DNA from: Escherichia phage UPEC03
DNA length: 64,000 bases
Reading direction: 5' to 3' (one strand)
Sequence record: MW250785
Shown: piece after piece, positions 14,605-56,576 of the stretch
Numbering within the stretch: the stretch's first letter is position 1
How the letters are laid out: every line of letters starts with the position of its first letter
The notes under the pieces: generated by a model
Databases searched by the model: none
What the model was told of the DNA's origin: nothing
What the model saw: the letters and a program-made list of their open reading frames with translations, nothing else
Translations under genes and position numbers: made by a program

Positions 14605-14643
14605 AAAAAGCCCCTTGCATGAGTAAGGGGCTTTTGTTATATT
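14605..14643 (+). promoter_or_regulatory. PeSL-type terminator/early-promoter stem-loop (class A)
   Basis: Hairpin 14609-14632 with T-run. -35 TTGCAT (14615-14620) sits in the loop, then a 17-nt spacer and -10 TATATT (14638-14643). Downstream: leader CATCGAAACGAAAC, SD AGGA and ATG 14681. Confidence 0.75.
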
Positions 14644-14680
14644 ACAAACATCGAAACGAAACAGACAAAAGGAACATCCC

Positions 14681-24186: not shown

Positions 24187-24224
24187 GTTCTCGTTCCTTT
24201 TGGCTGTTCCGTTTCGATATGTGT

Positions 24225-24263
24225 AATATAACAAAGCCCTCACCGAGAGGCAAGGGCTTTTTT
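24225..24263 (-). promoter_or_regulatory. PeSL-type terminator/early-promoter stem-loop (class A)
   Basis: - strand: hairpin 24260-24233, -35 TTGCCT (24253-24248), 17 nt spacer, -10 TATATT (24230-24225), leader ACACATATCGAAACGGAAC. Confidence 0.7.
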
Positions 24264-50971: not shown

Positions 50972-50998
50972 GATATCCTCCTTCGTTTCGATGTGTGT

Positions 50999-51037
50999 AA
51001 TATAACAAAACCCCTCACCATAGACAAGGGGTTTCTT
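50999..51037 (-). promoter_or_regulatory. PeSL-type terminator/early-promoter stem-loop (class A)
   Basis: - strand hairpin 51034-51008, -35 TTGTCT (51027-51022), 17 nt spacer, -10 TATATT (51004-50999), leader ACACACATCGAAACGAAGGAGG. Confidence 0.7.
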
Positions 51038-52424: not shown

Positions 52425-52460
52425 GATGTTTTCCTTTCTCTGTTTCGTTTCGATGTGTGT

Positions 52461-52499
52461 AATATAACAAAGCCCCTGCATTGCTGCAAGGGCTTTTTT
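52461..52499 (-). promoter_or_regulatory. PeSL-type terminator/early-promoter stem-loop (class A)
   Basis: - strand hairpin 52496-52469, -35 TTGCAG (52489-52484), 17 nt spacer, -10 TATATT (52466-52461), leader ACACACATCGAAACGAAAC. Confidence 0.7.
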
Positions 52500-52503
52500 C
52501 ACT

Positions 52504-52812
52504 TTAATCGAATTTTTCTGGCAACTGGTCTACAAGTGCTTGAGTTTGATGAAGTTCTTCACTCAATTTATCACGATAATGAACCAATTCGCGGGTTCTT
52601 GATGCGGAATAGCTAATGAGTTTATCAGCGGTAGCGGTGTAACCGTAACCAGCACACGCGATTTCCAGTTTTGCGTTATCGCCGTTAGGTACGCGGATAT
52701 GAGCATACGCCAGCAAGTTTTTAACCGCTTGCAACAGTTCATGATCTTCTTTGCCGATGATAAACTGGTTTGGTTCTGCTGAATCCATATACAGTTCTTC
52801 GTCTTTGTTCAT
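52504..52812 (-). CDS. Hypothetical protein (102 aa)
   Basis: ATGA-coupled to the DUF262 gene. Confidence 0.55.
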   Translation of the reverse strand: MNKDEELYMDSAEPNQFIIGKEDHELLQAVKNLLAYAHIRVPNGDNAKLEIACAGYGYTATADKLISYSASRTRELVHYRDKLSEELHQTQALVDQLPEKFD

Positions 52813-53342
52813 TTTGCAGCCTTATACATTTCCAGGACGCGGTTCATGTGATCTTGAGATTGAGGCACACCCGCGAAGTTCAGTTTGATGAAGAATTCCA
52901 GACGATCCTTTTTGGTGCATTCATCCAGCCCCAGGGCAGGTAATGAAATGTTTTCAAAGGCTCGTTGTTCGTGTCGTGGTATTTCGTCCCAGAACAAACG
53001 GGAACCGTCCGGCATAGGAATCCCAATTTCACCTTCGTAGACTTTGATAATCGTCGTCAGGCGTTGTTTGCCGTCGATCACTTCTACCCAATGGGTTTCG
53101 TTGAACTGACTATCAACCGCGATCGCAATGATACCGCAAGGGAAACCACTGATCAGGGTAGTCAGAAACGCATCTTGCTCTTTCTGCGTCCACACATAGG
53201 GGCGCTGGTAAGATGGATTCAGATCCAGATCTTTATTCTTCCACCAATGCAGATAACTCCCAACCATGATCGCGTGATCGCGACTGCGAAAAGTTAACTG
53301 ATCGCGGATACGGTTATGAACCGGAATATCATCTTTAGACAT
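52809..53342 (-). CDS. Stand-alone DUF262 (ParB/GmrS-like NTPase) domain protein
   Basis: 177 aa. NPSYQRPYVWTQKEQDAFLTTLISGFPCG and VIDGKQRLTTI (DGQQR motif). No DUF1524/HNH nuclease half. Confidence 0.7.
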   Translation of the reverse strand: MSKDDIPVHNRIRDQLTFRSRDHAIMVGSYLHWWKNKDLDLNPSYQRPYVWTQKEQDAFLTTLISGFPCGIIAIAVDSQFNETHWVEVIDGKQRLTTIIKVYEGEIGIPMPDGSRLFWDEIPRHEQRAFENISLPALGLDECTKKDRLEFFIKLNFAGVPQSQDHMNRVLEMYKAAK

Positions 53343-53664
53343 GATTCACCACCCAGCCCAACAAACCAGTATTGATAGCCGCAACGGTAAGGCAAATCAC
53401 CGCCAACACCCGCGCGTTATGAACTTTGGTTTTCAGTTCTGCGATCTCCTGATCATTTTCACTTTCGAACTCTTCACGGGTTCCATAGTAACCAGGATCA
53501 GCAGCGGTTGCCGGACGAACTGCATCTTTTTCAACGATGGTTGCATAACCGCTCGTTACTTTCGTTGCTCCGTACCAGTCACCGCGATCGTTATTGATGA
53601 TCAGGTGATCACCCTTCGCGTTATGCTTCGACTTACCAATGACAACTACACGTTCACCATTCAT
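53335..53664 (-). CDS. Tail-anchored membrane protein (109 aa)
   Basis: C-terminal TM helix VLAVICLTVAAINTGLLGWVV. Confidence 0.55.
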   Translation of the reverse strand: MNGERVVVIGKSKHNAKGDHLIINNDRGDWYGATKVTSGYATIVEKDAVRPATAADPGYYGTREEFESENDQEIAELKTKVHNARVLAVICLTVAAINTGLLGWVVNHV

Positions 53665-53671
53665 AATATAA

Positions 53672-53932
53672 TCACTCTTTCACGTTTTGTTGTAAGAACT
53701 CTAACAGCTTTCCTTCGGCCTGTAAAGCATAAAGTTTATTCAGCTTTGCGATATTTTCAAAGTCTGATTTTTCGCTGAACGACCAGACCCCATCATCGGA
53801 AACCAGCGCACCGATTGATACGCCAGTTTCAGGATCACGCGTCAACGCCAGCCCCAGGGGATGCAGGATATCTTTATTGATTTTCCAAATCAGCCCCAAT
53901 TGAGATAAGGTGTTGAAATCAACGTGACTCAT
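53672..53932 (-). CDS. Hypothetical protein (86 aa)
   Basis: ATGA coupling upstream. Confidence 0.55.
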   Translation of the reverse strand: MSHVDFNTLSQLGLIWKINKDILHPLGLALTRDPETGVSIGALVSDDGVWSFSEKSDFENIAKLNKLYALQAEGKLLEFLQQNVKE

Positions 53933-54315
53933 TTAGGCAATGCCCCGAAAGACAGCAGCCCCATACGATGATCGTTATCTGATTCACCAGTGCTGAATTC
54001 AAATTCTTCACCGCTGATACTGATAGCGCGGAAACCGTCTTTCAGGTATGGCAACAGATACAGAGGGATCAGCATCATGTTTGAATCGTCGCTCCACTTA
54101 CGGAAGCCCAGATTTTTCATTTCTTCCAGCGTCAAATCATTCGGATCGACGGGTTCGAAATCAGGGGAAGCGTAAAGGCGTCCAGGCAGATCGCGAATAT
54201 TTTTCACGGTGAATGAATCACCCCAGGACTGATACACGGTAGGTTCAGCGGCGCGGGTTGCGGTAGCCAGGAGGATCATTTGACAGATTTGAAAAGTTGT
54301 TGCTTTTGGTTTCAT
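53929..54315 (-). CDS. Hypothetical protein (128 aa)
   Basis: ATGA-coupled to the Nudix gene. Confidence 0.55.
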   Translation of the reverse strand: MKPKATTFQICQMILLATATRAAEPTVYQSWGDSFTVKNIRDLPGRLYASPDFEPVDPNDLTLEEMKNLGFRKWSDDSNMMLIPLYLLPYLKDGFRAISISGEEFEFSTGESDNDHRMGLLSFGALPK

Positions 54316-54725
54316 GATGTATATCCCACAAGTTTAGTCAGTAAATTCCCCATAGTCTTACGCGCATGATCGCGGATCTGGCTATACGGAACATATTTGA
54401 AGTCATCCATTTCAGTAATGGTTCGACCATTTTTAACGAAGGTTGAAGCACAAACACATTTTTCTGCTTCGGGGTAATTATTACCCACATATACGAATAA
54501 CACAAGCTCTTTTTTACTCGTATAATCAATCAGACCCAGGCTCAACAGTTCGTGTTGTTCAACTACAACGCCCGTTTCCTCGAAGCATTCACGGATAGCA
54601 GCATTGATCGGGGATTCGCCTTTTTCGATATGCCCCTTTGGGATGTCCCAATGAGGCGTTTCGGTTGCGTGGCCCATTAAAACGCTGCCGTTATTCAGGA
54701 AGAGAATACCAGCAGACCGTTCCAT
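54312..54725 (-). CDS. Nudix hydrolase
   Basis: 137 aa. Nudix box GHIEKGESPINAAIRECFEETGV. Confidence 0.85.
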   Translation of the reverse strand: MERSAGILFLNNGSVLMGHATETPHWDIPKGHIEKGESPINAAIRECFEETGVVVEQHELLSLGLIDYTSKKELVLFVYVGNNYPEAEKCVCASTFVKNGRTITEMDDFKYVPYSQIRDHARKTMGNLLTKLVGYTS

Positions 54726-56510: not shown

Positions 56511-56537
56511 GATTGCCTCCTTTGTTTCGACACCCCT

Positions 56538-56576
56538 AATATAACAAAAGCCCCTGCACGAATGCAAGGGCTTTTT
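56538..56576 (-). promoter_or_regulatory. PeSL-type terminator/early-promoter stem-loop (class A)
   Basis: - strand hairpin 56574-56547, -35 TTGCAT (56567-56562), 18 nt spacer, -10 TATATT (56543-56538), leader ..GTCGAAACAAAGGAGG. Confidence 0.65.

Follow-up and report, generated by a model that had tools for sequence, protein, structure and literature searches.

A stand-alone DUF262 head in a T4-like phage and its family in mobile elements

The DUF262 domain is among the most widely reused sensor modules of bacterial immunity. It occurs in GmrSD, BrxU, SspE, DndI, Menshen, PD-T4-2, Dazbog, GrwAB, and TgvAB. To our knowledge, it has been studied so far solely within host defence proteins. ParB-type proteins dimerise through the face that binds the nucleotide (N-engagement). 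To clamp DNA, ParB, KorB, and HerB depend on an HTH together with a dimerisation module. GmrSD, BrxU, SspE, and DndI sense DNA modification or depend on it. NsnA of Menshen and PD-T4-2_A are DUF262 sensors with a ParBDB domain and separate effectors, and we know of no sensor of this type that bears DUF1524. Three motifs define the domain: I (QRxxxW), II (DGxQR), and III (FxxxN) (PMC12065111, PMC12137116). The arginine equivalent to that of motif II is needed for defence in GrwA and GrwB (PMC12137116). Two DUF262 proteins are needed in GrwA/GrwB (PMC12137116) and in GmrS1/GmrSD2 (PMC12373910).

We analysed a stretch of 64,000 nucleotides (the window) from Escherichia phage UPEC03 (MW250785), a T4-like Pseudotevenvirus. 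Its minus strand presents at 52809..53342 the gene of a stand-alone DUF262 (ParB/Srx-fold) protein of 177 aa (20.7 kDa, pI 6.1, ATG start). The product is 100% identical at the protein level to GAP161_167 and is an orthologue of RB43ORF182c. Compared with the orthologues in RB16-type, RB43, CfP1, and KP15 phages, the gene shows dN/dS values of 0.08-0.11, that is, purifying selection. These values and the identity to GAP161_167 indicate a real gene.

PF03235 (GmrSD_N/DUF262) is the single Pfam family for this protein (E=6.9e-20, 72.5 bits against a cut-off of 33.2). The earlier note had assigned the domain from QRxYVW and DGxQR, and both motifs are present (residues 45-51 and 90-94). It had also considered that profile searches could place the protein in a different ParB-fold family. 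ParBc (PF02195) and sulfiredoxin gave no Pfam match even at E<=1, and the GCHR signature with the catalytic Cys of sulfiredoxin is absent. Likewise, the features of ParB proper (a ParBc match, an HTH, and a C-terminal dimerisation domain) were not found in this single-domain protein. Another ParB-fold family is not supported, because the profile searches assign the protein to DUF262 alone. In PHROG, residues 3-176 match phrog_1583 (E=8.2e-58), a phage protein family without functional annotation. NCBIfam has no model for it.

Motif I is YQRPYVW, within SYQRPYVWTQ (53190..53210, minus strand). Across 232 non-identical members of the family, conservation is 100% for Q46 and R47, 95% for Y45, 96% for V50, and 99% for W51. 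Motif II, the predicted nucleotide-binding centre, is DGKQR within VIDGKQRL (53061..53075, minus strand); here D90, G91, Q93, and R94 reach 100% and K92 99% in the same members. Motif III, which the earlier note did not mention, consists of FIKLNFAG (FxxxNxxG; residues 151-158, 52869..52892, minus strand). Its N155 and G158 are conserved in 100% of these members and F151 in 98%, with H165 at 85%. Overall, motifs I-III are 95-100% conserved in the 232 divergent members, and no other conserved surface patch was found. Such intact motifs suggest that the protein probably binds NTP and probably hydrolyses it.

The AlphaFold2 model of the protein is confident (pLDDT of 87.3) and shows a ParB/Srx fold. 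Every significant structural match in the PDB presents the ParB/Srx fold. When compared with BrxU/GmrSD-type domains, as had been proposed, the model finds its best DUF262 matches in BrxU and SspE (130-132 residues aligned). Viral DUF262 models align to it with TMq of 0.73-0.75. A sequence search of PDB chains gave no match (best E=0.77), and the relatives were recovered by fold comparison only.

After motif III there is one helix, and the protein ends 19 residues past the motif. So, the description of a phage-encoded DUF262 domain without its nuclease half is correct. The protein is the NTPase head alone of DUF262 sensors, without a ParBDB domain or an effector. Compared with GmrSD, BrxU, SspE, and DndI, it lacks the helical linker and the DUF1524 His-Me nuclease; a scan of the protein and of the products of five flanking genes gave no DUF1524 match. 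It shares the three motifs of NsnA and PD-T4-2_A. However, the C-terminal ParBDB DNA-binding domain of NsnA is missing, and the NsnB ABC ATPase and NsnC effector of the Menshen operon are not beside the phage gene. No ABC ATPase, BECR, HEPN, or RelA_SpoT partner adjoins it. The CTP-binding heads of PadC and ParB and the plasmid leading-region protein HerB/YfjB differ in that theirs is ParBc (PF02195), unmatched here. In contrast to ParB, KorB, and HerB, the phage protein has no HTH and no dimerisation module.

Among the defence profiles, the 177-aa protein scores best with Menshen NsnA (1.4e-15, over the whole domain) and PD-T4-2_A (3.4e-12). The PADLOC NsnA alignment pairs residues 19-170 with profile positions 45-199 of 385, the first half only. 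Conversely, the GmrSD, BrxU, and SspE-type models are weak (0.002-0.03), and the Type IV, SspE, and Orf5/HEC models of PADLOC range from 1e-6 to 0.03. By these profile scores, the nearest cellular relatives are sensors of the NsnA/PD-T4-2_A type and not GmrSD. The kinship with GmrSD, BrxU, and SspE claimed earlier holds for the common DUF262 fold and motifs, but not for the closest profiles.

Bacterial relatives whose motif II is likewise DGKQR match the NsnA profile at 4.5e-35. They have a median length of 347 aa and a C-terminal domain. A RelA_SpoT-like gene follows this type of DUF262 gene in 36 of 52 loci, and HEPN genes occur in others. These DUF262-RelA/SpoT and DUF262-HEPN two-gene systems are apparently undescribed. 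The phage family shares 25-37% identity with the cellular sensors, and both form separate groups in a rough neighbour-joining tree. Because of this deep divergence, the mobile-element family was not copied recently from a host target.

The short DUF262 proteins make up a family of 589 clusters at E<=1e-30, so the survey of truncated DUF262 genes in phages suggested beforehand shows them to be widespread. All of the best 150 (of 589 strong representatives) stop directly after motif III, and so do 79 IMG/VR ORFs. No relative examined has a meaningful C-terminal extension. Relatives of 250-290 aa also exist, and their extra length is an N-terminal extension. A link by gene fusion between this extension and the 109-aa membrane protein encoded upstream in the window was dropped because of an hhalign probability of 0.2. 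Besides phages, the carriers include Klebsiella and Pseudomonas conjugative megaplasmids. The hosts of the carrier phages comprise Enterobacterales, Moraxella, Bacteroides, Tenacibaculum, and Alicyclobacillus. The earlier statement that only the DUF262 part is present in a phage is thus right for this protein, although not as a one-off truncation. Judged from these sequences, the short DUF262 proteins are a large, old mobile-element lineage.

Among 60 records sampled across the ranking, none was a Tequatrovirus or Mosigvirus, and the 'Escherichia' matches amount to just 53 records overall. In a DNA-level comparison with 5,426 complete E. coli genomes, a single genome matched, with a truncated copy. 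Prophage copies in E. coli were considered and discarded, since this sole match lies on a plasmid. In the library searched, we came across no publication that describes stand-alone DUF262 proteins of phages or a function for them.

The gene lies in a putative early cassette bounded by PeSL-like elements, as is its arrangement in T4-like phages. At the head of the cassette (56537..56575, minus strand), a composite element joins a GC-rich hairpin with the sigma-70-like TTGCAT-N18-TATATT. The hairpin is terminator-like and has a conserved tail. This repeated motif is present five times in the window against 0.02 expected. Another PeSL-like element closes the cassette (52460..52496, minus strand), 8 nt past the stop of a 102-aa gene. 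Both resemble the PeSL promoter-terminator element as defined previously (PMC2839356). In ST64B, the DUF262 gene is in the middle of a translationally coupled block that is flanked by a cI-like repressor gene and the integrase gene. This position suggests that the copy lies inside a repressed early operon and is probably silent in lysogens. The copies on Klebsiella and Pseudomonas conjugative megaplasmids are in long co-directional arrays of small ORFs with orphan methyltransferases; the Klebsiella array also includes RepB. The latter is a candidate leading-region location, and no oriT or relaxase was placed nearby.

Upstream, the 109-aa gene (phrog_7472; 53335..53664, minus strand) overlaps the DUF262 start by 8 nt, as noted before. 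The tail anchor proposed for its product fits a hydrophobic C-terminal segment at residues 88-106 of 109 (mean Kyte-Doolittle 2.03). The product is 65% identical to RB43ORF183c and 75% to KP15_145. Downstream, the 102-aa gene (phrog_15764; 52504..52812, minus strand) is translationally coupled through an ATGA overlap with the DUF262 stop. Its product is the equivalent of the C-terminal portion of KP15 and Phynn proteins with 304-328 aa: blastp matches KP15_141 at residues 215-304 (3e-9) and Phynn_227 (1e-3), and phrog_10932 is matched at positions 214-303 of 304. The RB43 counterpart has just 41 aa left. A DUF7415 protein and NudE are further neighbours, and none of the neighbours in the window is an ATPase or a nuclease.

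The pairing of the membrane protein with DUF262 is kept in GAP161 and in RB43- and KP15-type phages. However, no counterpart is beside the RB49, Phynn, ST64B, metagenomic-phage, or plasmid homologues. The tail-anchored neighbour is a clade-specific context and not a family-level partner. We clustered by blastp the ORFs around 28 diverse phage loci, dereplicated at 60% DUF262 identity, and no family of neighbours was common to them. Nothing recurrent emerged when 137 flanking proteins were scanned with Pfam (PolyA_pol 3, NUDIX 2), and the follow-up found a CCA-adding enzyme in one locus only (L028). Likewise, no nuclease family recurs beside the relatives. We rejected a link with a cytosine-5 methyltransferase of the kind present in RB49 (p189-p188-p187): tblastn found no RB49p189 or p188 homologue in the window (E>0.8).

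Our best guess is that the protein is an autonomous NTP-gated switch of the ParB type, made on entry, which interferes with host immunity based on DUF262 sensors. We give it a probability of roughly 0.3. The 177-aa protein would be produced immediately after the element enters the cell and would bind NTP via motifs I-III, with probable hydrolysis. Its nucleotide-loaded face might then pair with a second DUF262 head, as in other ParB-fold heads. The partner could be the sensor head of Menshen NsnA, PD-T4-2_A, or the DUF262-RelA/SpoT-type or DUF262-HEPN-type systems. The paired phage head, without DNA-binding and effector-coupling parts, would cap this sensor. A capped sensor would no longer license its RNA- or tRNA-directed effector.

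As support for this counter-defence role, we count the fold, the conserved pocket, the known pairing of DUF262 proteins, the short architecture, the NsnA and PD-T4-2_A profiles, the lack of a conserved neighbour, and the entry-phase context. On the other hand, a specific dominant-negative mimic is expected to be a recent copy of its host target, and the divergence of the family counts against it. Antagonism of one particular protein partner agrees less well with such different hosts than a generic biochemical activity does. As the earlier note suggested, superinfection exclusion is conceivable, and so is dominant-negative action in a broader sense.

In the first alternative, the protein is a head sensing modified or foreign DNA, directed against superinfecting phages or plasmids, for example hmC/glucosyl-hmC T-even phages of the same hosts. 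It would use an unlinked or host effector, or act by binding alone. Every characterised DUF262 protein is a defence sensor (PMC10952713, PMC12065111), and one GenBank record of an orthologue is labelled 'DefenseFinder protein'. The T4-like carriers seen (RB43, RB49, KP15) belong to lineages reported without hmC, so a modified-cytosine sensor would spare the DNA of its own phage. The absence of Tequatrovirus and Mosigvirus from the sampled records agrees with this. Nevertheless, an effector domain is absent, the 28 loci show no conserved partner, and the protein lacks the ParBDB needed for DNA binding in SspE-type proteins (PMC12065111). The ST64B copy is probably not a lysogen-expressed moron, given its predicted place in a repressed operon, and the 'DefenseFinder' label mirrors just a profile match to the domain. 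We regard exclusion of competing elements as rather improbable.

Osa, the 189-aa protein of IncW plasmid fertility inhibition, is likewise a small single-domain ParB/Srx protein of a mobile element. It acts in inter-element conflict, and its single pocket gives both ATPase and DNase activity (PMC4619093). An autonomous enzyme of this kind would join an NTPase with a DNase or other nucleotide-processing activity in one pocket. It would target host or competitor DNA, the nucleotide pool, or a signal, and would need no protein partner. Such an enzymatic role would account just as well for the strictly conserved catalytic residues, a point against counter-defence. We give this possibility about the same weight as the exclusion of competing elements.

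In the earlier note, the protein was also proposed to act as a dominant-negative decoy against Type IV restriction enzymes of the GmrSD or BrxU type. They share the domain, no DUF262 structure matches better than those of BrxU and SspE, and T-even phages invest heavily in the GmrSD inhibitors Ip1 to Ip3 (PMC12373910). However, these known inhibitors are internal proteins that the phage injects, and they have no relation to DUF262 (PMC12373910). RB43-, RB49-, and KP15-type phages lack the genes for hydroxymethylcytosine and glucosylation (PMC12115623, PMC5219037), so their DNA is without the GmrSD substrates and a GmrSD decoy would have little purpose. The Type IV profiles are also weak against that of NsnA. 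A residual case exists for BrxU: KP15-type phages encode Dcm-like methylases (PMC5219037) and may meet 5mC-sensing enzymes of the BrxU type. Altogether, such a decoy seems very unlikely.

Last and least probable, an NTP-dependent switch regulating the products of adjacent genes, notably the tail-anchored membrane protein, could draw on the tight coupling (8-nt and 4-nt overlaps) and the adjacency kept in GAP161, RB43, and KP15-type phages, but it fails at the family level, where the 28 loci share no partner, the membrane protein is not beside the RB49, Phynn, ST64B, metagenomic-phage, or plasmid homologues and has no homology to the extension of the long forms, and gene overlap is the norm in T4-type early cassettes.

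The analysis identifies a large, strongly conserved mobile-element lineage with the NTP pocket alone. It offers a minimal model of the DUF262 head by itself, for the nucleotide used, dimerisation, and nuclease activity. More speculatively, and with considerable doubt, the short DUF262 proteins on phages and on conjugative megaplasmids might together be anti-defence factors of the entry phase, a broad class that has so far gone unrecognised. Through NTP-dependent pairing of DUF262 heads, they would act as a domain-level 'sensor cap' against Menshen, PD-T4-2, DUF262-RelA/SpoT, and DUF262-HEPN, common to very different mobile elements. If the exclusion of competing elements were true, the protein would be an unusually small module of phage-phage competition. 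If the anti-defence reading were true, these proteins would be a new inhibitor class. It would be relevant to the host range in phage therapy, because the Klebsiella, Enterobacter, and Cronobacter carrier phages are therapy candidates, and it would matter for the way in which resistance megaplasmids become established in a new host.

The minus-strand ORF 52809..53342 encodes a protein of 177 aa with three DUF262 motifs: YQRPYVW (residues 45-51), DGKQR (residues 90-94), and FIKLNFAG (residues 151-158). PF03235 (GmrSD_N/DUF262) is the only Pfam family that matches it (E=6.9e-20, 72.5 bits, cut-off 33.2); ParBc and sulfiredoxin give no Pfam match even at E<=1. The DUF262 assignment made earlier from the QRxYVW and DGxQR motifs, both present, is thus borne out, and the profiles do not move the protein to another ParB-fold family. 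In PHROGs it matches phrog_1583 (8e-58), which has no assigned function, and no NCBIfam model covers it. Purifying selection on the gene is strong (dN/dS 0.08-0.11 against four orthologues).

The AlphaFold2 model was compared with PDB structures. The scores and aligned residues were 9.1 and 109 for ParB-N 5k5d, 9.0 and 132 for BrxU, 7.7 and 94 for PadC, 7.6 and 130 for SspE (20% identity), 6.8 and 85 for sulfiredoxin, 6.4 and 89 for KorB, 6.2 and 137 for DndI, 5.6 and 92 for a serine kinase, and 3.7 and 81 for Osa. The longest superpositions are with DUF262 structures. Viral DUF262 models from BFVD superpose at TMq 0.73-0.75.

Searching 1.84 billion representative proteins with a profile returned 23,812 matches at E<=1e-3, of which 589 reached E<=1e-30. 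The best 150 relatives are all 150-370 aa long, with the DUF262 domain at the extreme C-terminus. One length class (~165-185 aa) is the domain standing alone, like the protein of the window. The other (~250-295 aa) adds an N-terminal extension, formed by a Lys/Arg/Glu-rich helix and then a small beta-barrel (consensus ...ePTyfFkvGerV.yGnw...VlEVlDdGKiY). This barrel looks SH3- or Tudor-like, with faint Pfam hints of DUF2158 and Agenet. It may be a nucleic-acid-binding add-on, absent from the window protein. Most of the distant relatives are of 250-295 aa (proteins P0019, P0021, P0023, P0024, P0026, and many of P0027-P0170; loci L045-L085). In IMG/VR, 235 stretches encode relatives, and the frame ends at most 21 residues past the aligned domain in 78 of 79 delimited ORFs. 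The stand-alone architecture described for the phage protein was correct.

Across 232 non-identical members, the near-invariant residues are Y45, Q46, R47, V50, W51, D90, G91, K92, Q93, R94, F151, N155, and G158; H165 is slightly less conserved. These positions coincide exactly with the three motifs of the nucleotide pocket, and the same members show no further conserved surface. GmrSD-type proteins have DGQQR at motif II, so the lysine of DGKQR is a signature of this family.

The region shares 96% DNA identity with Cronobacter phage GAP161 and 88% with RB16, which with RB43 belong to the genus Pseudotevenvirus (Straboviridae). GAP161_167 is identical to the DUF262 protein, and RB43ORF182c shares 88%; both are annotated as hypothetical proteins. 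The gene lies within a minus-strand series of short, translationally coupled genes, among them those for NudE, a 128-aa protein, a DUF7415 protein, a 109-aa membrane protein, the DUF262 protein, and a 102-aa protein. The DUF7415 protein (53672-53932 (-), 3.6e-12) and the NudE Nudix hydrolase (54312-54725 (-), 2.5e-16) are both kept in KP15 and RB43.

Two copies of a composite repeat flank this run, at 52460-52496 (-) and 56537-56575 (-). Further copies are at 14627-14644 (+), 24224-24241 (-), and 50998-51035 (-). In each, a GC-rich hairpin (AAAGCCCTTGCA...TGCAGGGGCTTT) precedes TTGTTATATTA; the window contains the motif 5 times, where chance would give 0.02. One reading of the repeat is a terminator overlapped by a sigma-70-like TTGCAT-N18-TATATT promoter. 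Spurious ORFs running across the copies yield a recurring peptide, '...GFCYITHIETKE...'. The same make-up is described for the cassettes of RB49-type phages, where promoter plus stem-loop elements (PeSLs) join strong sigma-70-like early promoters to terminator stem-loops and bound shuffled cassettes in hyperplastic regions of T4-type genomes (PMC2839356; PMC4122927). From the PeSL make-up of the flanking repeats, we infer that the DUF262 cassette is expressed early.

The neighbours of the gene change from phage to phage. Upstream, the tail-anchored 109-aa protein (53335-53664, -) is real, with a hydrophobic segment at residues 88-106; RB43- and KP15-type phages alone keep it (65-75% identity). 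In its place, Phynn encodes an unrelated protein of 192 aa, ST64B has sb34, and RB49 has a protein with CxxC pairs after an annotated DNA methyltransferase. The RB49 order (L003 1951-3516) is methyltransferase p189, p188 with two CxxC pairs, and the DUF262 homologue p187. FxGxG and PPC motifs suggest that p189 is of the cytosine-5 type; the window has no homologue of p188 or p189. Downstream, the 102-aa protein (52504-52812, -) corresponds to no more than the C-terminal third of KP15 (L006 3510-4424) and Phynn (L005 3948-4934) proteins of 304-328 aa, and its RB43 counterpart (L001 9528-9653) is reduced to 41 aa. This series looks like stepwise truncation or modular shuffling beside a PeSL. After dereplication of the DUF262 proteins at 60% identity, ORF clustering over 28 loci found no neighbour family common to three or more diverse loci, and no family recurred among 137 flanking proteins scanned with Pfam. 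The function therefore resides in the single DUF262 gene.

The survey across phages suggested in the earlier note found homologues in 276 phage records, and there are others on 327 plasmids. Phage carriers include Pseudotevenvirus, Slopekvirus KP15 (78% identity), Krischvirus RB49 and GEC-3S (36%), Pantoea phage Phynn, Pectobacterium phage POP12, and the temperate Salmonella phage ST64B (sb33, 46%). More distant homologues occur in phages of Bacteroides, Tenacibaculum, Moraxella, and Alicyclobacillus. The plasmids are mainly conjugative ones of Klebsiella/Raoultella, of 200-380 kb (41-44% identity over the full length), and Pseudomonas megaplasmids (~30%), one of which, examined as an example, is conjugative, 422 kb long, and typed IncP. 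Homologues are found in pKP04VIM (L173, 116645-117097), pPUV-14 (L174, 408051-408578), and pDETEC13 (L172). In both groups the homologue sits in a long co-directional array of small ORFs, a layout that resembles a leading or establishment region. These arrays of hypothetical ORFs include orphan methyltransferases and DUF4942. With one genome per species (185,579 species), close relatives appeared only in Klebsiella grimontii and Citrobacter freundii, and both copies are probably prophages. Of 5,426 complete E. coli genomes, a single one matched at DNA level, with a plasmid-borne copy. The family therefore belongs to mobile elements, and is neither phage-only nor chromosomal.

The best defence profile is Menshen NsnA (1.4e-15, covering the whole domain), followed by PD-T4-2_A (3.4e-12) and a REase_II model (2e-9). 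The Orf5/HEC models reach 4e-6 at best, and the Type IV and SspE models 0.002-0.03. Bacterial DGKQR proteins are longer (median 347 aa), and 61 of 76 have at least 150 residues beyond the motif. They share the DUF262 + ParBDB layout of NsnA (PMC12065111), and the NsnA profile matches one of them at 4.5e-35. The earlier note has DUF262 normally joined to a DUF1524 half, which does not hold for these nearest relatives. A rough neighbour-joining tree, built on the core domain, sets the mobile-element short forms apart from the cellular long forms. The short forms thus represent an old lineage rather than recently truncated host genes.

We surveyed the neighbours at 52 bacterial loci with a 320-440-aa DUF262 protein (from L094-L171; examples, L100:5953-6999 and L136:6993-7976). 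In 36 of them, a gene for a ~325-aa protein lies directly 3' of the one for the DUF262 protein, itself of ~345 aa. The scanned example matches Pfam RelA_SpoT (32.6 bits, cut-off 27) and no PADLOC model. This pair may be an undescribed two-gene defence system, a sensor with a toxSAS-like partner. At five of the 52 loci the following gene is HEPN RiboL-PSP-like, as the scanned example matches. Other loci have a weakly SIR2-like gene upstream (below the Pfam threshold) or a cytosine-5 DNA methyltransferase nearby. Within three genes of DUF262, RNA-end or RNA-repair genes are present in a few phage loci (alignment A2): an HD-domain CCA-adding enzyme (L028:6100-7353), PolyA_pol heads in three loci, and Thg1, RlaP, HAD_SAK_2, and a Rv2179c-like exoribonuclease once each. 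The numbers are small, but these neighbours may be meaningful, given that the cellular relatives are linked to effectors acting on RNA or tRNA.

The protein is a complete ParB/Srx DUF262 head, with an intact and strongly constrained nucleotide pocket. It has no DNA-binding or effector module and no conserved partner gene, and travels on phages and conjugative plasmids. The ST64B homologue lies in an overlapping-gene block between a cI-like repressor gene and the integrase, which argues against a moron expressed in lysogens. This block and the PeSL cassette are positions typical of entry-expressed genes. The protein would bind and hydrolyse NTP, and could pair through its conserved face in an NTP-dependent way, as ParB heads do. 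DUF262 heads work in pairs, since both proteins are required in the two-gene Type IV systems GrwA/GrwB (PMC12137116) and GmrS1/GmrSD2 (PMC12373910). The likeliest role, at a probability of roughly 0.3, is counter-defence, in which the protein would cap host sensors of the NsnA/PD-T4-2 class. Three points weigh against capping: the family has diverged deeply from those sensors, its carriers span a very wide range of hosts, and the strict conservation of catalytic residues suits an enzyme equally. An autonomous Osa-like NTPase/DNase or nucleotide enzyme is a lesser possibility; Osa, a plasmid-encoded stand-alone ParB/Srx protein of 189 aa, has both activities in one pocket (PMC4619093). An exclusion factor against other mobile elements ranks equal with such an enzyme. 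The decoy of GmrSD proposed in the earlier note is unlikely. GmrSD cuts glucosyl-hydroxymethylcytosine (hmC) DNA. RB43 and RB49 lack hmC genes (PMC12115623), and the only methylases of KP15-type phages are Dam- and Dcm-like (PMC5219037). That mobile elements use ParB-fold switches on entry is shown by HerB/YfjB, a ParB-like, CTP-binding protein induced as soon as a plasmid has been transferred (PMC13370423); HerB, however, has an HTH motif and a clamp module, and the DUF262 protein has neither. A switch for neighbouring genes, also suggested earlier, is the least probable role, with no comparative support from the 28 loci and 137 flanking proteins.

In the literature searched, we found no paper on stand-alone DUF262 proteins of phages or plasmids. 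Databases label the relatives 'hypothetical', 'DUF262 domain-containing', 'chromosome partitioning protein', or 'DefenseFinder protein'. This architecture, a DUF262 head on its own, is a real and widespread form of a familiar domain family.
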